The position numbers and the translations under genes were made by a program. A DNA stretch of 35,240 nucleotides from Nanobdellati archaeon (GTDB lineage Archaea > EX4484-52 > WAPT01): the NCBI GenBank assembly GCA_015520605.1, contig WAPT01000015.1, forward strand, positions 1 through 35,240. The letters run 5' to 3'. The notes under the pieces are model-generated. The model was given only the letters and a program-made list of their open reading frames with translations, did no database searches and had not been told where the DNA came from. How positions within the stretch are numbered: position 1 is the stretch's first letter; every line of letters starts with the position of its first letter. Positions 13,281-26,201 of this stretch are shown one piece after another.

Positions 13281-14519
13281 CTACGTCTCTTTTTTCACAA
13301 CATGGTCTGGCAGGATGGTGTAGTTGATGATTTCTTTCAGGAAGGTGGTGGCATAGGTAGACTTCCTGAGCGCAAACCTCAGGATAAGCTTATTTTTACC
13401 TTTAAAAAATTCATCCCTCCCTATTTCAAGAATTTCAAAGTCGTGGACCTTTCCAAAAGCCTTTCTGTAACGTGTTGTGGTCGTTAGATGCTTCTCCTTC
13501 TTGAAGTAGAACATTTCAGGCTTTATTCCTTCTTCTTTAAGCAGCTCATCCAGCAAGTCGTGCCATCTCTCCCTTACGACGGGCCGGGAGTAATCATAAC
13601 CCACCACCGGTATCCTTAGCTTCTCATCAAAATAACCGGATTTCACAACCTTTTCAAGCAGCCTGTTGAAGAGATAGGACTGATAGGAATTTATGACGAA
13701 CCTCTGAAATTTCTTCGGCAGCGAGAGAAACGCCAGCTTGAAGTCATTAGTCTCTATTAACGTTTTCAGCATTATCCTTTCATGTTCATACTTTTTTGGT
13801 AAGATTTCAAGAGCCTCTCCATATCTTCTTTTTTCTATGAGCTCTCTGGCCAACCTCATCCTTTCGTCCATCTCCTTTTCTTTGAAGGCAGTAAGATAAA
13901 ACAGTACACCCCTTTCAAATTCCCTTAGAACTATGTATTTGCCAAAAAGGTGTGTTATCTCTCTCTTTGTGCCAAATCTCTGCTCACCGTAATAATTGGG
14001 AAAGTACCCTCCAGTAACATTAAAGTAGTCCTCTATAACTTCCCTTATCTCTTTTTCATCGTTCTCAATATTTCTTATCGTTATGGTGAACCGATTTCCC
14101 CACAATCCACCCAGAAAAACCTTGTTTCCGTAACGGATGGGTACAATCTTTATGTCCTTAAGATCTATATTCTCAACATCTTCCCTTTTGACCCTATACA
14201 GTCCGATGAGTTGAGATGTCAGCGCGTGTTTGTCTTTAAGCCCGGCAAAGGTTATTTTGTCCTCTTTTTTTATGCGTAGCTTCTTTCTCAGTTTTGACAC
14301 AGCTTCAAATGTGTCGTATCCTTTTTTTATGAGAACGCAGTGAAGGAACTTCCCCTCACTACTTTCATCGAATATGTAATCTCTATCAATCTCGAGCACC
14401 TCATGCCTGTGAGGCATTTCCTCAACAACAAAGTCCTCGTACTTGTATTTTATTATTCCTTCTATCCTTTTTCCCTTATATAGGGGCTCGAAATGCATGC
14501 ATTTGTCACCGAAAAGCAT
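13281..14519 (-). CDS. truD: tRNA pseudouridine(13) synthase TruD/Pus7
   Basis: EDFVVEE, AGLKDKHALTSQ (catalytic Asp), GNRFTITIR, NYYGEQRFG, QSYLFN and YATTFL.E motifs. Confidence 0.95.
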   Translation of the reverse strand: MLFGDKCMHFEPLYKGKRIEGIIKYKYEDFVVEEMPHRHEVLEIDRDYIFDESSEGKFLHCVLIKKGYDTFEAVSKLRKKLRIKKEDKITFAGLKDKHALTSQLIGLYRVKREDVENIDLKDIKIVPIRYGNKVFLGGLWGNRFTITIRNIENDEKEIREVIEDYFNVTGGYFPNYYGEQRFGTKREITHLFGKYIVLREFERGVLFYLTAFKEKEMDERMRLARELIEKRRYGEALEILPKKYEHERIMLKTLIETNDFKLAFLSLPKKFQRFVINSYQSYLFNRLLEKVVKSGYFDEKLRIPVVGYDYSRPVVRERWHDLLDELLKEEGIKPEMFYFKKEKHLTTTTRYRKAFGKVHDFEILEIGRDEFFKGKNKLILRFALRKSTYATTFLKEIINYTILPDHVVKKET

Positions 14520-14584
14520 ATATATTTTCTAAGCCCAAAATAGCGAAGGTGGCTTAACACAACTATCTCATGGTTTTATCTCCC

Positions 14585-15622
14585 TTACTGGGATGTGGCC
14601 GTGCCCCGCCCATCGTGGCGGGTCACGGTTTTCACTTCCTTACGAAGAATTTCTTTCAGTTTCTCGGTGGATTTCTCATCATTTACAGATGTTTCAACAC
14701 AGATTACATCCCTATACTTTTGGTGAAGATATTCCTTCGCACTTTCAATGACATCTCTCATCGCTATGTCTATTTTGTTGAGACAGCATATAGTTTTAAG
14801 GTGGGGAAATAAGCCCCTTAATCTCCCTAAGAGCTTGAGTTGTTTTTCCAGCTTGTAACCACAAGTCTCGCTAACGTCGATAATGTAGAGCATTATTGCG
14901 GGAAGAGTAGAGAGCGCGGTTATTGCTTTCTTTTCTATCTCTTTCATTCTTGAAGGATCCCTGTCAAGAATGCCAGGAGTATCTATGAGCTGAATTTCAT
15001 CGTTAAGGTATCCCACCATGAGCTTCTTGGTTGTGAATGGGTAGTCCGCTATCTCGGGCTTGGCCCCGCTAAGCTTCCGAAGCAGGCTACTTTTTCCGAC
15101 ATTGGGGTAGCCGGATATTATGACGGTGGGCATATCTTTTAGGGAGGGGAACTCCGAGGAAATCTTTTTTACCTCTATGAGCGTCTGGAAAGCGTCTCGC
15201 CTCTTTTTTATTACTGAGCTTACTCTACCGTAAAAGGATCTTCTCAGAGTTTTAATTTTCCTTACAGATTTTTCCTGTTTGATTTTTTTCTGGTATTCTA
15301 ACTCGAGCTCCCTAACTTTATTCGCTATCCAGCTGAGGGTGGCAAGAGCCTTTTTTACAGTCTCAAGCGGCATATAGATGGACAGCAACTTTCTATAAAA
15401 CTCAGGCACCTCATCCAGATTTGGAACGCTCTTTATTATTTCCTTTATATTATCCCTGATAACGTTACTCACCGTGCTTATCTTCTGAAGCTCTAGTAGC
15501 TTCTCCCTCATCACCCTATCCTTAATATGCGGATCAGCACTTATCTTACTCGCTCTTCTGAAGGCCCTGTCCACAAGTTCCTCATGCGTTGGAATATGCC
15601 TAATGGTCTTGAAGGGATTCAT
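14585..15622 (-). CDS. Nog1/GTPBP4-like GTP-binding protein (ribosome biogenesis)
   Basis: EELVDRAFRRA N-terminus, GYPNVGKSS, YPFTT, DTPGILDR and NKID motifs. Confidence 0.93.
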   Translation of the reverse strand: MNPFKTIRHIPTHEELVDRAFRRASKISADPHIKDRVMREKLLELQKISTVSNVIRDNIKEIIKSVPNLDEVPEFYRKLLSIYMPLETVKKALATLSWIANKVRELELEYQKKIKQEKSVRKIKTLRRSFYGRVSSVIKKRRDAFQTLIEVKKISSEFPSLKDMPTVIISGYPNVGKSSLLRKLSGAKPEIADYPFTTKKLMVGYLNDEIQLIDTPGILDRDPSRMKEIEKKAITALSTLPAIMLYIIDVSETCGYKLEKQLKLLGRLRGLFPHLKTICCLNKIDIAMRDVIESAKEYLHQKYRDVICVETSVNDEKSTEKLKEILRKEVKTVTRHDGRGTATSQ

Positions 15623-21919: not shown

Positions 21920-21983
21920 CGCGGCTCATAAGCTACTCCTGAAATCATGACCGTCATTCTGGGACGGCTTAATCATCGCCGCG
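21920..21983 (-). ncRNA. Box C/D 2'-O-methylation guide sRNA
   Basis: Minus strand: CGCGGC-g-[C ATGATTA]-AGCCGTCCCAGA-[D' ATGA]-CGGTC-[C' ATGATTT]-CAGGAGTAGCTT-[D ATGA]-GCCGCG; 6-bp terminal stem, two 12-nt guides complementary to conserved 23S rRNA motifs, TATA elements upstream at 22004-22022. Confidence 0.85.
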
Positions 21984-22030
21984 GTTATAACATTCGGTCA
22001 GCATTTTTAAATAGTTATAAACTTCATCCC

Positions 22031-22927
22031 ATGCCCGATCATAATGATAAAACAGTGGTAAAACGATTGGAAGAAGTAAAGAACTATATCTCATCCCCGC
22101 AGGGCAGAGAGGTAGTGCAGGCGTACAACAAGCTTGTTGAGTCTCTAACTTCCATCCCATCGAGTGAGGCACGGGGGTCGCTGGCGCTGGCCATTGCCAA
22201 TAACCTTTATTGTGAGGTGGTTGGAAATATAACAGAAGAGCGTCCAGAACTTGTGTGCACGGGAGTTATAATGTTGGACAAGAAGTTAGAAAGTGCAGGA
22301 TACGAAAGCTTGGTTAATGTGCCTGAAGATGTTAAAGAAAAAATAACAGAAGCAGCCTCATCGTTCTTGGACGAATTGTATAAGATTCTGAGGAACGAAC
22401 AAAACCACGATGTAAGTATGAGCGATACTCAAGTCCACAGCCGCGCGAGCGGAAGAATGAGATTTAGAGACGTACAAGCCAGATATCTTCTTTACGCTTT
22501 GGCGGAACTTCCACCTGAGGATATCAAAAGGATAGAGGTGGAGATGGAGGGGAGAATGGAGAACTCTCACTATAACTTACTTTCCAGACTTTCCCGAAAT
22601 AATATTGTAAGGGTCGTGGACTATGGAACAGAGAGGAAAACCGTCTTGACAGACGATGGTGAAGCGCTCCTTGAAGAATGGTACAAAAGGATGAAAAGGA
22701 AAGGAGTGGTACACAGAGTTGTTGATAATCTTTCAAAGCTGAATGAGGATGCGGTACACACACTCATTTCAAAACTGCGAGAGTTGGAACGCAGGATAGA
22801 AACGGCGAGCGAAATTCAGGCTTGGCATAAAAAAGAAGCAATCACCAAGAACGATGAGTACGGATCGAATAGAGATGAAATCAAACCCATCTACAAGAAA
22901 GAAAAGATTGGAACACGGAATATTTGA
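22031..22927 (+). CDS. Hypothetical protein with C-terminal winged-helix-like segment
   Basis: Start moved to ATG 22031 (after a TATA box and clear of the sRNA); LLSRLSRNNIV......RKTVLTDDGEALL resembles a MarR-type wing. Confidence 0.7.
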   Translation: MPDHNDKTVVKRLEEVKNYISSPQGREVVQAYNKLVESLTSIPSSEARGSLALAIANNLYCEVVGNITEERPELVCTGVIMLDKKLESAGYESLVNVPEDVKEKITEAASSFLDELYKILRNEQNHDVSMSDTQVHSRASGRMRFRDVQARYLLYALAELPPEDIKRIEVEMEGRMENSHYNLLSRLSRNNIVRVVDYGTERKTVLTDDGEALLEEWYKRMKRKGVVHRVVDNLSKLNEDAVHTLISKLRELERRIETASEIQAWHKKEAITKNDEYGSNRDEIKPIYKKEKIGTRNI

Positions 22928-23355
22928 TAATCGAAACCCCGACCGGGGATAAGTATCTACCTTTACTGCAACTGGATGTTTTTGATTCACGAAAGAATCG
23001 ACTTGTCAACAGATTTTCCGTGGAGTTTATTTTTTTGCAGGTTCTAGAAGAATTGGAAAGAGAGAATGGCAAAGAGATTAAAAGAAAGATTCTTTTTGGT
23101 TTAGTTTCTCGCGGTGCTGTGGTTGAAAACGAGGACGGGAGCGTGAGCATAGATGAAATCTATCGATCTCTTCTTCACAGAGCCAAGAAGGATCCGATGG
23201 GACATGATTTTGAAAATGTAAGCGAAATAGAAACGTTAGAGATAGGCGCGGTTCTCAGGTGGATAGACGGAGTTGGCGAGATAATCGTGCCGCCACCCTC
23301 GATCTTTGCGAGACTTGTACGAAATTACGAAAAACTTTACTTGCAGGAACTTTAA
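22924..23355 (+). CDS. Hypothetical protein (possible winged helix)
   Basis: TTG start overlapping the upstream TGA; ILFGLVSRGAVVENEDGSVSI; T-rich tract after the stop. Confidence 0.6.
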   Translation: MIIETPTGDKYLPLLQLDVFDSRKNRLVNRFSVEFIFLQVLEELERENGKEIKRKILFGLVSRGAVVENEDGSVSIDEIYRSLLHRAKKDPMGHDFENVSEIETLEIGAVLRWIDGVGEIIVPPPSIFARLVRNYEKLYLQEL

Positions 23356-23392: not shown

Positions 23393-24115
23393 TCATTCAT
23401 TCATCCTTTTTGATTTCAGGTCCACCATTTTTCTACCCAACATCAATTTAGCTTCAGGATCTTTTTCTAAGTTGAACAAGTTCCTGAGGTAATGGATAAC
23501 ATAATAAAGATACACATCCTGGGGAGGAGCACCCTCAACACTTTTGATGAGGTCTCTTGCTCTCTCCACAAATTCAACACCCTTCTGACCTAAATACACG
23601 TGTTCATTATCCTTTTCTAGCAAGCCCAGTTTAAACATTTCTTCAGCAAGCATATGTTCCAATCTTTTCCTCTCTTTTGTGTACTTTTTCATAACGTTCG
23701 ACATCCTGCCATGAATATCTGCGCTGAAATGATTGCATAATTCCGTTTCTTCAACATAATCTCTGAGCCTTCTGACTTTGCAAACTCTCTCTATGAACTT
23801 TTCATAAGTTGGAATACGAACATGATCCACACGAGATACGGTATCCAGAACCAGAAACTCAGGGGCGTAGGTATACTTTGCATTCTCAAACCAATCATTC
23901 AAATATTTTAGCACAGGTAGCTCAACATCATCATCAACGTAAATACCGATCGCACTCCGTGGCATCACAGCCCTTTTTTCAGAATGGCGGAGATCACGTT
24001 CTCCTTCTTTACCCTCACCTCTCCAGTAAAGACGCGTCATTCTCACAAGCTCAAGCTCGTCGCTCCTCTCCCCACACCAATATTTTAACGTTTTCTCAAC
24101 AACATCGCTCTTCAT
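23393..24115 (-). CDS. Hypothetical protein (possible winged helix), downstream of the radical SAM gene
   Basis: ATG 24115 preceded by GAGGGG (alternative start 24130); EEMFKLGLLEKDNEHVYLGQKG. Confidence 0.7.
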   Translation of the reverse strand: MKSDVVEKTLKYWCGERSDELELVRMTRLYWRGEGKEGERDLRHSEKRAVMPRSAIGIYVDDDVELPVLKYLNDWFENAKYTYAPEFLVLDTVSRVDHVRIPTYEKFIERVCKVRRLRDYVEETELCNHFSADIHGRMSNVMKKYTKERKRLEHMLAEEMFKLGLLEKDNEHVYLGQKGVEFVERARDLIKSVEGAPPQDVYLYYVIHYLRNLFNLEKDPEAKLMLGRKMVDLKSKRMNE

Positions 24116-25214
24116 TCCCCTCAACCTCATAAAGCGGATCAACTTGCATTATGAACCTGTCATCTGCTGGAAGTTCCCACACAAGCTCAACTTTGTATCC
24201 GTGGTGTGCAGCCTTATACCCCAGCTTCTCGGATGTTTCAACAACCCCCATGTTATTATTCACATAGAAGTTCCTTGGAGAGGCTCTCAAAACTCTCATT
24301 AACTCATCCTTAAGCTGTTCAAGCTCCTGCCCTTCCTTGGGGTAGATATATGCCTTAAGCAGCCAACCCTCGTCACTCACCCTCTCGTAAGACCTTTTCA
24401 TACTCTCCGCCCGTAACTTAAACCTGTTGCGTAGCTGAAAATATTCTTTAACGTAGCTCTCACAGAAGTGCGCGCTTAGGTTTGTGGTATAAGCGGCTAT
24501 GTACTTTATCATCTTCCTGCCAAGCTCATAACTACCTTTGACCGTGTTAAACTCATCAAAGTTTAGCTCATAACCCCTTGCCATGATTTCATCCGCCGTC
24601 AGCTCTGAAGCTTCAAACTCGTTTAGGTTTATGAACTTTGCTCCAATGTCTTCAAGGTAGTGAACCATCTCCTTAATATAGTCCTCTTTATCGGGTATGC
24701 ACGGGATCTCAACCCCAACATCAAAAGAATACTCAACCGCTATCTTCACAAGAGGCCAGTTCCGCTTATTCTCCATATCGAGGTGGAAGCGCAGTTCATC
24801 AAGGCCAGCATCCTCAAGCTTGCTTAGAGCATCACGGAACTTCTCCTCGTTCAGTATACCATAGGTGTAAAGATGGATGTGAAAGCTCCGCCCAAACGTA
24901 TCCTTCAAGAGCTTTATGTAGTGCAGGGTTCTCTCCAATCTCACTAAGGGATCCCCTCCAGTAACACCAACACCCCTGGATTGGCAGAGTTCCACTTCTC
25001 TTATGATGTCTTCACCGCTCTTTACATGGATCTCGTTTATCACAGTTATGTCTTTGTTCTTTCTGTAAGAGGAGAGAGGACAGTAGAAACAGTTAACTGG
25101 ACAGATGCCGGTAACAAAAAGCACGGATTTCAGACCCTTTATGCACAACTCGCACCCCTTTGGCAGTATACCGACATATTTCGAGCCGGCTAAGCTCGTC
25201 TTTACTTTTCTCAT
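24096..25214 (-). CDS. Archaeal radical SAM protein (COG2108-like)
   Basis: LPKGCELCIKGLKSVLFVTGICPVNCFYCPLS (CxxxCxxC), TGGDPL, HIHLYT, GLDELRFH; start moved to ATG 25214. Confidence 0.92.
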   Translation of the reverse strand: MRKVKTSLAGSKYVGILPKGCELCIKGLKSVLFVTGICPVNCFYCPLSSYRKNKDITVINEIHVKSGEDIIREVELCQSRGVGVTGGDPLVRLERTLHYIKLLKDTFGRSFHIHLYTYGILNEEKFRDALSKLEDAGLDELRFHLDMENKRNWPLVKIAVEYSFDVGVEIPCIPDKEDYIKEMVHYLEDIGAKFINLNEFEASELTADEIMARGYELNFDEFNTVKGSYELGRKMIKYIAAYTTNLSAHFCESYVKEYFQLRNRFKLRAESMKRSYERVSDEGWLLKAYIYPKEGQELEQLKDELMRVLRASPRNFYVNNNMGVVETSEKLGYKAAHHGYKVELVWELPADDRFIMQVDPLYEVEGNEERCC

Positions 25215-25310
25215 GAAAAAATTTGTTTTTGAATGAAATTTAAAAAACTGCCGAACAGAAACAAGCATATTACTGTGTGTTAGCATGACTTGAACCAAAA
25301 TAGAAAAATC

Positions 25311-25480
25311 GGGCTCGGACGGTGGGGGACGCGCACCCTCTCGCCACACCGGTTTAGGACCGGAGACCTTTGTCCCCCACCCTCCGATGTAAAGCAACAT
25401 CGCCCTTTCGGTCGACCATCGATGCCCTCTTTAGCACCGGGTCTCATCCCAAGTTATGCCCTGCCCAACCCTGGTGCCAT
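25311..25480 (-). ncRNA. Unidentified structured non-coding RNA, about 170 nt
   Basis: 62% GC (106/170 by hand count) between AT-rich flanks; long helices; G-U pairs and a GAAA tetraloop favour the minus strand; TTAAATA about 25 nt upstream (25506-25512) and a T-tract immediately downstream. Confidence 0.75.
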
Positions 25481-25589
25481 CTACCTAATCAAATGGTTCC
25501 GGAAGTATTTAAGTTTTCCGGTCTCTCAACATATAAGTCTCAGAATACAAGTCCAAAAATTGCGTAATTTTTTGAGAAATCCAACAGTT

Positions 25590-26201
25590 TTAATCAAAAT
25601 CGGGAGCAAGTTCATTCTCAAAAGCTTCCGTAAACCTCTTAAGCTTTCTATCGTTTTCCTCCATCCTGGTGTTCAACATTTCCACCACGAACCCGATATA
25701 GTCTTCACTTACGCTGATCTTATTATTTATCCCTACAGGCACGGCAACGTAATCCGTGGCTATAACTTCCACAAACGGAAAAGGAGTAACTCTGAACATC
25801 CCACTCCTCTTGAATCCCAACCTTATGCACAGATTTATCAGCTTTTCTGCAGCTTCAAGATCTCTGCACCCTATATGAAGTATGAAAGACTCAAATTTGA
25901 GCCAGAGCACGGAGTTTGGGAAAGCCCTACTCTCGAGAACGTTTCTTATATTTTCGGTAATTTCCTCCACTTTCACCTTTCTGTGCCACTTAGCAACGAA
26001 TTTATGATCCTTTTTCTTTCCTTTGAGAGGAACATGTGAAAGGCTTATCCTGCCGCTGCATGATGATGTGGTGAAGAAATTCCGCGTTTTGTTTATGATG
26101 TCGAGGAGAGGTATAACTTTTTTATCCACTTCTCCATTTTCCATCGCTCTTTTCAAAGCATTCAGACTTCTCTCTTTATGCCCGTCAAAATCAGCACTCA
26201 T
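25590..26201 (-). CDS. taw3: tRNA wybutosine-pathway methyltransferase Taw3/TYW3
   Basis: GEVDKKVIPLLDIIN, TTSSCSGRI, KWH, ILH and GFKRSG motifs. Confidence 0.93.
   Translation of the reverse strand: MSADFDGHKERSLNALKRAMENGEVDKKVIPLLDIINKTRNFFTTSSCSGRISLSHVPLKGKKKDHKFVAKWHRKVKVEEITENIRNVLESRAFPNSVLWLKFESFILHIGCRDLEAAEKLINLCIRLGFKRSGMFRVTPFPFVEVIATDYVAVPVGINNKISVSEDYIGFVVEMLNTRMEENDRKLKRFTEAFENELAPDFD

Follow-up and report, generated by a model that had tools for sequence, protein, structure and literature searches.

A candidate family of structured small RNAs with a predicted kink-turn and a shared 3' module in a DPANN phylum

We analyzed a window of 35,240 nucleotides (nt), positions 1 to 35,240 of contig WAPT01000015.1 (GenBank assembly GCA_015520605.1) of a Nanobdellati archaeon. 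The host genome (G000) is a DPANN ('Nanobdellati') metagenome-assembled genome from hydrothermal-vent samples (863 kb, 44% GC, 90.7% complete). The TYW3/Taw3 gene occupies 25590-26201 and a radical SAM gene has its real start at 25214; between them lies what is very probably a real non-coding RNA gene of a new family, referred to here as the small RNA (sRNA). The original prediction, made from the letters of the window, had placed a structured RNA of about 170 nt on the minus strand between taw3 and the radical SAM gene, and a GC-rich island is indeed found there, with 55-60% GC (window 25480-25304, minus strand) against ~30% in the flanking intergenic DNA. We found that the RNA consists of a 5' domain with a predicted kink-turn (K-turn) and a 3' module that recurs in many other genomes of the phylum. 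The features of the locus are as follows.

25506 to 25513, minus strand: TATA box, CTTAAATA in G000 and TTTAAATA in the related genome G001, about 26 nt ahead of the point where AUGGC begins.
25304 to 25480, minus strand: whole sRNA gene (subfamily S1) of about 177 nt, with predicted ends at AUGGC and at the last base of the U run.
25453 to 25480, minus strand: 5' segment, RNA nt 1-28, near-invariant in the genus.
25408 to 25452, minus strand: K-turn hairpin, RNA nt 29-73, from a pattern scan and homologues.
25388 to 25407, minus strand: variable linker, RNA nt 74-93, containing a non-conserved 'ACA' at nt 91-93.
25315 to 25387, minus strand: shared 3' module, with the basal helix UCGGA-G-GGUGGGGGAC / GUCCCCCACC-G-UCCGA enclosing an asymmetric internal loop.
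25350 to 25362, minus strand: apical hairpin within the module, the CCGG-UCCUA-CCGG region, RNA nt 119-131, from the fold and homologues.
25304 to 25314, minus strand: single-stranded tail G-CCCGA and U run; the family consensus is (C/U)CCAAGUUU, that is N-CCA, and the target genus has N-CCG.

The genus set comprises G000 and two other genomes, G001 and G002. We found that the TATA consensus (C/T)TTAAATA is kept in all three while the adjoining intergenic bases vary, and that the U run closing the sRNA is likewise kept in all three while the downstream spacers cannot be aligned; in G001 the spacer from the sRNA to the next gene is unalignable. By BLASTN the sRNA is 94% identical to G000 in G002 and 84% in G001, and a full-length covariance model (R1) scores 195-216 bits in the three genomes. 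Since the TATA box, the U run and the sequence are conserved while the flanks diverge, we read the island as a gene on the minus strand, which agrees with the promoter and terminator of its own that had been proposed for it. The choice of strand is not settled by folding energy because both strands give similar values (z = -2.64 for the minus-strand fold of -77.0 kcal/mol, z = -2.59 for the plus strand). The longest internal open reading frame (ORF; 55 amino acids, aa) is interrupted by stop codons in G001 and G002, and the sRNA of G001 carries a 1-nt deletion, thus the sRNA is non-coding. In contigs of the public DNA runs X3-X5, five of the six listed variants at paired positions keep pairing, and run X2 contains no differences. 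Counting against the reading as a gene, the ends of the RNA, its strand and its expression are all predicted from DNA sequence.

With the whole sRNA as query, the gene had looked like an orphan restricted to its genus. Neither BLASTN nor R1 (matches in 3 of the 42 genomes of the phylum) found relatives outside the genus; an 18-mer scan of 185,579 species genomes returned only G001, G002 and chance matches in GC-rich bacteria; and a 20-mer scan of Joint Genome Institute (JGI) metagenomes gave two matches, both by chance in coding regions. The 3' half of the RNA, a hairpin of about 86 nt with a single-stranded tail behind it, overturned this view. When only the 3' module was modeled (R2), weak matches appeared in another family, which end in nearly the same tail, and the degenerate tail pattern TCCGAGCCCRANTTT was found at 20 sites in 14 of the 42 phylum genomes, with no site for the reversed control. 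A further model (R3), built from 19 modules found by an exact 3' pattern, was then run against 61 genomes, namely the 42 of the DPANN phylum and 19 archaea of other phyla. It produced 42 matches at E <= 3.2e-6 in 22 of the 42 phylum genomes; the archaea of other phyla gave four matches, all with E > 0.01 and at chance level. The strong matches fall in families f1, f6 and f7 and in genus g9 of family f2, at one to four copies per genome, while families f3, f4, f5 and f8 have none or weak ones. The module of the target sRNA itself scores 74.7 bits.

We found that the modules share one architecture throughout the 24 of 44 that were folded singly: a long basal helix, an apical hairpin of 4-5 bp, a long unpaired segment on the 3' side, and then the tail. 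They measure 77-90 nt, with the exception of the paralogue in the target genus (63-65 nt) and one weak, insert-bearing match (110 nt). The apical hairpin stands at the same place with other letters in other genera (CCGA/UCGG in g7 and g9, CGGA/UCCG in g11 and g6). In the alignment of 44 modules (A7), 86.3% of basal helix cells are paired, compared with 39.7-65.2% in slid controls, and 36 cells show changes on both sides, compared with 13.1 +/- 5.4 after shuffling; none of 500 shuffles reaches 36 and the slid controls give at most 24. The second pair, for example, is U-A in 23 copies and C-G in 13. This suggests that the basal helix covaries, and the check for covarying homologues that accompanied the original prediction thus came out in its favor. 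Two points weigh against this evidence: A7 was fitted to the R3 structure with sequences found by R3, which biases it toward pairing, and the 19 seed modules (A5) show no both-side changes in the basal helix, which we attribute to the search pattern having fixed the 3' strand. The tail reads N-CCA in 37 of the 44 modules and N-CCG in 7. By variant, 33 have (C/U)CCAAGUUU, the six copies of the target genus have CCCGAUUUU, and five have others.

Comparison with Rfam 15 is consistent with a new class. At gathering thresholds the whole window matched only a tRNA, elsewhere in the window, and at E <= 10 the best match to the sRNA region was mir-9193 (14.7 bits, E = 9.2), which is meaningless given a gathering score of 55. 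The five genus loci gave nothing relevant and 15 loci of other family members only neighboring tRNAs. The proposal of a new non-coding RNA class therefore fits both results, the lack of an Rfam match below E = 1 and the covarying homologues in 22 of 42 genomes. Such an RNA is also not described in the main texts of the literature that we searched on Nanoarchaeum and DPANN small RNAs, kink-turns and L7Ae.

Individual known classes were rejected as well. The signal recognition particle (SRP) RNA of the genome (RF01857) lies on contig C1 at 147.1 bits and by eye bears no similarity to the sRNA. RNase P RNA was briefly a candidate identity because G000 encodes Rpp29 and Rpp30 and gave no RNase P RNA match; at the sRNA locus neither RF00373 nor RF02357 matches, and G001 and G002 carry the sRNA in addition to a classical RNase P RNA (133.6 and 124.5 bits). 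The original prediction had likewise seen no hallmark motifs of SRP RNA or RNase P RNA. Reading the sRNA as similar to transfer-messenger RNA, with a short ORF and a tRNA-like end, was abandoned as the ORFs are not conserved. As a separate observation, the genes for Rpp29 and Rpp30 lie at C24:27248-27499 and C18:14928-15518, and the RNase P RNA was not found in the assembly; with a completeness of 90.7%, an assembly gap is the most likely reason.

Most copies of the module are preceded by a distinct 5' domain of 70-90 nt and a TATA-like box, which in the other members stands, by eye, 23-30 nt before that domain. Grouping the copies by eye gave three subfamilies and two further types. S1, the most widespread, is defined by an AACUUGG motif followed by the K-turn hairpin; it is 155-177 nt long and has members in the target genus (three genomes), g11 (three), g6 (four), g7 (one) and g9 (three). 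Three copies of g13, which lie beside the gene of a winged helix-turn-helix (wHTH) regulator, seem by eye to have a kink-loop (K-loop) instead of the K-turn. S2 has a UGUGACCCACACA 5' domain and adjoins a tRNA gene in g6, and S3 is a third subfamily type. The paralogue of the target genus forms a type of its own. Finally, a-type copies directly follow a protein gene or AT-rich DNA and have no structured 5' domain, for example behind an M24 peptidase gene (g6) and behind a gene of no known function (g11).

Two side observations concern these types. S2 follows a tRNA gene with an encoded CCA at a distance of ~60-100 nt and S3 is divergent from an intron-containing tRNA gene (tRNA-adjoining members: L200, L210, L211 and L213 in g6; L207 and L208). 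In a-type modules a conserved block runs past the U run with CCAGAA in g6 (L151, L153-L155), g11 (L157, L158, L159, L165) and g13 (L203, L188, L189), so that either the RNA or a DNA-level signal extends past the presumed terminator.

The recurrence of the module raises the alternative that it is a selfish or structural repeat hairpin or a terminator cassette, comparable to repetitive extragenic palindromic (REP) elements or miniature inverted-repeat transposable elements (MITEs), with the K-turn separate and incidental. It would agree with this that strong copies number one to four in a genome, that all copies close with a U run, and that the a-type copies stand right behind protein genes. However, the copies occupy orthologous positions across genera and have diverged yet remain paired, whereas recent mobility would leave near-identical copies; terminal inverted repeats with target duplications are missing; and a conserved 5' domain and a promoter-like TATA box of its own belong to most copies. 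In addition, conservation is higher in the single-stranded tail than in the helix. We consider a repeat element improbable.

The 5' domain of the target sRNA can fold in two ways. The hairpin GGCACC-A-GGGUU/GACCC-GGUGCU, the 15-bp helix around CCGG-UCCUAAA-CCGG and the alternative pairing of GAGACC with GGUCUC that the original prediction described are all present in the sequence. So are the GGGC and GCCC segments that were said to close the second domain; as a closing helix they do not hold, since GAGC in G002 gives an A.C mismatch. The same prediction saw no clear K-turn, yet a canonical one forms if GAGACC pairs not with the 5' GGGUU but with GGUC, which stands 25 nt downstream. The letters read UUGG|GAU|GA|G|ACC ... 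GGU|C|GA|CCGA: the canonical (C) stem is formed by nt 29-32/70-73, the bulge by G33, A34 and U35, and the core by G36 and A37 opposite G68 and A69, followed by the non-canonical (NC) stem 38-41/64-67, a distal helix 42-47/56-61 and a loop 48-55. The K-turn competes with the 5' hairpin because GGGUU (nt 10-14) and GGUC (nt 64-67) are rival partners of GACCC. The role of the 5' segment depends on this choice: it is either the 5' strand of that hairpin or free alongside the K-turn hairpin. Within the genus set the segment varies only at nt 17 (G/A) and nt 28 (C/U). The linker behind the K-turn hairpin is strongly divergent in G001, and a possible small hairpin in it (75-80/85-90) is paired in just 77.8% of cells.

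In G000 a fold constrained to the K-turn has -75.2 kcal/mol, a cost of 1.8 kcal/mol relative to the minimum free energy (-77.0), and in G001 the K-turn fold is the minimum. Several results tell against the K-turn. Across the three genus sequences 98.4% of cells are paired in the competing hairpin fold and 90.5% in the K-turn fold, and neither exceeds shuffles; the genus alone thus gives the K-turn no better support than the 5' hairpin. The letter pattern also arises by chance about 0.1 times per shuffled sequence. Since three sequences cannot separate the folds, the case for the K-turn rests on the homologues.

We found the K-turn by scan at the homologous place in all 14 S1 RNAs, from five genera, and in all three copies of the paralogue. 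The GA/GA core with its 3-nt bulge is invariant in the 14 S1 RNAs and in the three paralogue copies. In the 14 S1 RNAs the bulge is GAU in 12, AAU in one and GAG in one, and the stems vary (UUGG/CCGA, GGG/CCC, AGGG/CCCU, UUAGGG/CCCUAA, GGGG/CCCC). The orientation is that of box C/D or U4 K-turns in 14 of 14, with the bulge on the 5' strand and the canonical stem proximal. The hairpin loop is 3-10 nt long, or a paired insert of 22 nt in the target genus. Canonical box letters occur in some genera only: the K-turn strand reads AUGAUGA (C box) in g9 and the partner strand CUGA (D box) in g11. The target genus has AUGAGAC and UCGA, and position 3b-3n is a Watson-Crick G-C pair. The paralogue of the target genus has an unambiguous K-turn, AUCCCGG|GAU|GA|C|UCCACAU...GUGUGGA|C|GA|CCGGGAU, and in G001 one C-stem base pair of it is removed from both strands. 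Taken together, our data suggest that the S1 K-turn is probably a genuine kink-turn of the L7Ae type, with L7Ae binding predicted; G000 encodes L7Ae, Nop5, Cbf5, Nop10 and an LSM protein. Two further pairings were considered. A second K-turn in the paralogue, from the 3' hairpin loop and tail, was judged to be chance and needs G.U pairs with the U run. A possible long-range helix between a 5' segment and the tail, AAACUUGG/CCAAGUUU, fits g11 and has no consistent partner in g1, g7 and g9; its letters also occur in g6, where the segment can pair locally.

The original prediction had further suggested a divergent H/ACA guide. In such a guide the internal loop of the 3' hairpin would be the pocket; an unusual guide of the box C/D type is the other form of a modification guide. 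Guide RNAs are expected in G000 because it encodes Cbf5, Nop10, Nop5 and L7Ae (for the H/ACA partners, TruB_N 85.1 bits and Nop10p 70.4 bits; their presence is necessary, not sufficient), and no other H/ACA RNA is known in this genome. The C- and D-box strands of g9 and g11 also speak for a guide, and one report describes for Nanoarchaeum equitans a single H/ACA RNA that is likewise ~159 nt long, with two hairpins, its own TATA box and a T stretch (PMC3491384). Other observations tell against a guide. The ACA that had been taken as a motif lies in the hinge and reads ACA in G000, CCA in G002 and GAU in G001, while contigs from two public runs have GCA; its first base is thus A, C or G within the genus, and other genera lack a hinge ACA. 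Behind the module none of the 44 copies has an ANA, the tail being CCCGA or (C/U)CCAAG. In the solved Pyrococcus H/ACA ribonucleoproteins (RNPs) the K-turn or K-loop lies in the upper stem with its non-canonical G.A stem facing the pocket. The sRNA has the opposite orientation (bulge on the 5' strand, canonical stem proximal), its second hairpin contains no K-turn, and the distance from loop to tail is ~35 nt and not ~15. As a box C/D RNA it fails in other respects: the K-turn hairpin is closed and its C-like and D-like strands enclose no unpaired guide, which in box C/D RNAs has 10-12 nt and lies upstream of D/D', a C'/D' pair is missing, and the length is 155-177 nt compared with ~50-70. Furthermore, the unpaired segments vary between genera, whereas rRNA targets would be conserved. 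The H/ACA proposal is therefore not upheld, and we regard a guide of either type as quite improbable.

The paralogue occurs in each genome of the genus, is ~255 nt long, and was recognized by a BLASTN match to the last 43 nt of the target sRNA. In G000 it is placed as follows by BLASTN and alignment.

Contig C12, ~14370 to 14630 (locus L031, ~971 to 1233), minus strand: paralogue.

It has in common with the sRNA the GGGAUGA motif, the downstream CGACCG, and the whole 3' hairpin with the tail. Separately, we noted in it a Shine-Dalgarno-like (SD-like) GAGGU and an AUG that opens a frame of 30-31 codons, open in all three genus genomes. The frame contains an in-frame indel of 3 nt, its last ten codons (...MYIIPGCSTE) include three third-position changes, and it is closed by a stop codon immediately before the K-turn hairpin. 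The paralogue may be a small-protein mRNA whose 3' part is structured, or what look like codons may simply form a conserved 5' hairpin. A further alternative is a leaderless mRNA or dual-function RNA, in which a very short ORF is translated and the structured remainder is a 3' untranslated region. The frame of the paralogue would agree with this, and so would the S1 members whose 5' regions were read, which start at or near an AUG followed by a short open frame (8 codons in the target, 9-16 in the other genera, 30-31 in the paralogue). However, the S1 peptides share no sequence, the target frame stops at a UAA inside the conserved AACUUGG motif, and the sole change within the genus in the 8-codon frame is non-synonymous (Gly to Asp). 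Conservation tracks RNA motifs and not codons, and we rate translation as the function of S1 as very improbable.

The neighborhood provides a further test of function, since the original prediction considered that the RNA might be a partner of the radical SAM enzyme or its substrate. The ATP-grasp, TYW3 and radical SAM genes form the same old neighborhood in g1 and g6. Radical SAM orthologues are present in 33 of the 42 genomes, and the sRNA is directly beside one only in the target genus; none of the 27 orthologue loci outside the genus has such an RNA upstream. GC-rich patches at five of these 27 loci were examined and set aside as coding-like, without tRNAs. Elsewhere other genes adjoin S1: a Na/Ca-exchanger gene stands between S1 and the radical SAM gene in g6 (for example G007), a GNAT acetyltransferase gene lies downstream of S1 in g11 (G018), and the S1 neighbors in g7 and g9 are wholly different (G008 and G010 unrelated). 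Because the orthologues are widespread and the linkage is lost outside the genus, we see no specific tie to the radical SAM enzyme, and the partner or substrate proposal does not stand.

A related alternative makes the sRNA a cis-acting leader, a riboswitch or attenuator of the radical SAM gene with a regulated terminator. It lies on the same strand 90 nt upstream of that gene, ends in a hairpin and U run, and keeps this adjacency in all three genus genomes. In all three, however, a TATA box separate from that of the sRNA stands ~25 nt ahead of the ATG of the radical SAM gene, so that the two are distinct transcription units, and the G001 spacer is unrelated. The S1 orthologues elsewhere precede, or converge on, other genes, the 27 outside loci have no counterpart, and the same 3' module terminates many unrelated transcripts. 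These findings largely refute a leader, which we consider highly improbable.

A gene that accompanies S1 in several genera encodes the wHTH regulator (173-182 aa; 35-37% identical between genera). It is divergent to S1, 250-350 nt from the module, and lies beside it in 11 genomes of four genera: G001, g6 (four), g11 (three) and g13 (three). Its conserved C-terminal domain has the motif G.GM.G.T.II...H and no Pfam name. Its divergent partner in family f3 is the gene of a small membrane protein, and the module was sought beside it in f3 and in three g6 genomes and is not there. Four of these wHTH genes are placed as follows.

L003, 1831 to 2361: wHTH gene of G001.
L167, 1790 to 2326: wHTH gene of G018.
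L216, 2642 to 3190: wHTH gene of G007.
L217, 1503 to 2024: wHTH gene of G029.

This arrangement bears on the main rival explanation, that the family are trans-acting regulatory sRNAs whose 3' hairpin and AAGUUUU tail form a binding module for Sm-like archaeal proteins (SmAP/Lsm) and whose unpaired linker, or long 3'-side loop segment, pairs with mRNAs. An LSM protein is encoded, the 3' end of all members consists of a hairpin, then an A/G-rich tail and a U run, and the structured ends with an A-rich unpaired linker between them are as expected for such an sRNA. The divergent wHTH gene would suit a conditionally expressed regulator; G000 and G002, however, lack it. Between genera there is no conservation of the unpaired segments, and the invariant UCCGAG-CCC and the size of the module are left unexplained. 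Nor did we find a convincing target in G000. Short-word BLAST of the sRNA and the paralogue against the genome gave only chance-level 11-14-mers, the best of 13-14 nt, and one double hit proved to be a coding repeat; the complement of the tail gave nothing meaningful, with one 9-mer beside a tRNA gene at a count equal to chance. We consider a role of this kind unlikely. The coding repeat is a side observation in itself: at C13 ~233-245 and ~1542-1554 the motif TGCTTTGCATAACTTGGGACTATGAAGA recurs in two neighboring genes, which are probably paralogous, and matches the sRNA by chance over 13 nt.

Three ORFs near the sRNA in the window gave no Pfam match at E <= 0.001: 23393-24142 (minus strand, 249 aa), 21947-22927 (plus strand, 326 aa) and 22924-23355 (plus strand, 143 aa). 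The 249-aa ORF is also without an NCBIfam match.

Our best explanation of the whole, which we hold tentatively, is that the sRNA is the RNA of a small RNP bound by L7Ae and equipped with a shared 3' handle. L7Ae would bind the K-turn and so favor it over the competing 5' hairpin. The 3' module, which may well be a handle for protein binding or processing, would be common to all members, end transcription at the U run and give each the same protected or processed 3' end. The variable 5' domains would then give each member its specific task. In the form of this explanation that we find most likely, the tRNA-end enzymes RNase P, tRNase Z and the CCA-adding enzyme would treat the helix, the U at position -1 and the N-CCA as they treat the acceptor end of a tRNA; alternatively, the handle might be read by another dedicated protein. 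An argument against the explanation as a whole is that the single-stranded parts of S1 show low sequence conservation at the family level, and for that reason no target can be proposed.

That the module is specifically acceptor-like is a possibility about which we are doubtful. The tails resemble a tRNA end in the 37 N-CCA cases and in the U at -1 (at least 32 of 44), 16 of the 22 tRNA genes of G000 are, by our reading, followed by N-CCA, and the tRNA-end reading would explain why the module is placed behind both sRNA domains and protein genes. A series of results argues against it. In single folds the module is a rod with an asymmetric loop, with neither a cloverleaf nor a T-loop, and neither ARAGORN nor the Rfam tRNA model calls it a tRNA. 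The basal helix exceeds the 12 bp of an acceptor/T stack, the target genus has A.G as its first pair and CCG rather than CCA in its tail, and the bases after CCA (AGUUU) are also conserved, which tRNA mimicry does not explain.

The most far-reaching version, a class of sRNAs in this phylum in which several genes per genome each fuse a specific 5' domain, in the S1 line an L7Ae kink-turn domain, to a shared tRNA-sized 3' domain that mimics the acceptor end, is speculative and rather unlikely. If it is true, the tRNA-end machinery would mature or mark many transcripts other than tRNAs, some mRNA 3' ends included, as an archaeal parallel to the MALAT1/mascRNA module, and the module would be a general archaeal device of RNA maturation so far seen only as isolated 't-elements'. 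A bolder version would have the module recruit a novel protein, giving a new class of RNP alongside the C/D and H/ACA RNPs. If the K-turn binds L7Ae, the sRNA would represent a third kind of L7Ae small RNP beside those two. Of the eight families of the phylum, at least four conserve this group of RNAs, with a covarying helix, a near-invariant tail and no match to a curated family, and tiny DPANN genomes are unlikely to keep two to four paralogous structured-RNA genes without a use. It also provides an annotation model for about 44 intergenic islands that have apparently been unannotated so far. The observation behind the original prediction was real and its fold partly misread, and the new class is larger than supposed, with a paralogue and a multi-gene family.

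Among known systems, the closest to the 5' domain are the K-turns of box C/D RNAs and of the 5' stem-loop of U4 small nuclear RNA (snRNA), which are sites of L7Ae/Snu13. Like these, S1 has a 3-nt bulge followed by tandem G.A/A.G pairs, with the bulged strand 5' and the canonical stem proximal; in g11, g6 and g9 it also has a short NC stem with a small loop, and there are C-box-like (AUGAUGA, g9) and D-box-like (CUGA, g11) letters. Unlike box C/D and U4 RNAs, S1 has no guides between the strands and no C'/D' elements, is 155-177 nt long and carries a large conserved 3' domain; in the target genus 3b-3n is Watson-Crick G-C and the D-like strand is UCGA. K-turns are reported to be linked to proteins of the L7Ae family and to Nop-domain proteins (PMC11213020), and L7Ae-bound K-turns are reported in archaeal mRNA leaders (PMC5539422, PMC6298567). 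The S1 K-turn resembles the leader K-turns in standing outside guide RNAs, and it may fold only with L7Ae because a competing hairpin exists; unlike them, it would lie in a stand-alone non-coding RNA and not before the start codon of a protein.

The single double-hairpin H/ACA RNA of Nanoarchaeum equitans, 159 nt long and with its own TATA box and T-stretch terminator (PMC3491384), shares with the target sRNA a similar size, two hairpin domains, a K-turn and the same transcription signals. Both also belong to tiny archaea with genes for Cbf5 and Nop10, where they occur in one or a few copies. In contrast to H/ACA RNAs, the sRNA has no conserved ACA or ANA after either hairpin, a reversed K-turn, a second hairpin lacking one, and the wrong geometry from loop to tail. 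With tRNA-like t-elements the module has in common a discriminator-like base and CCA behind a helix, a U at -1, and a position 3' of an sRNA domain or mRNA, where it could define the RNA end. Unlike them, it has no T-loop or cloverleaf, is not called by tRNA finders and has a longer helix; bases beyond CCA are conserved, the target genus has CCG, and tRNA-type processing is a prediction only. Bacterial Hfq-dependent sRNAs, finally, have a common 3' terminator/U-tail module. The module described here is far larger than theirs and conserved in sequence at its base and tail, and no target pairing was found for it. Like the Hfq-dependent sRNAs, many members of this family join one 3' module to variable 5' parts in a genome that encodes an Sm-like protein.

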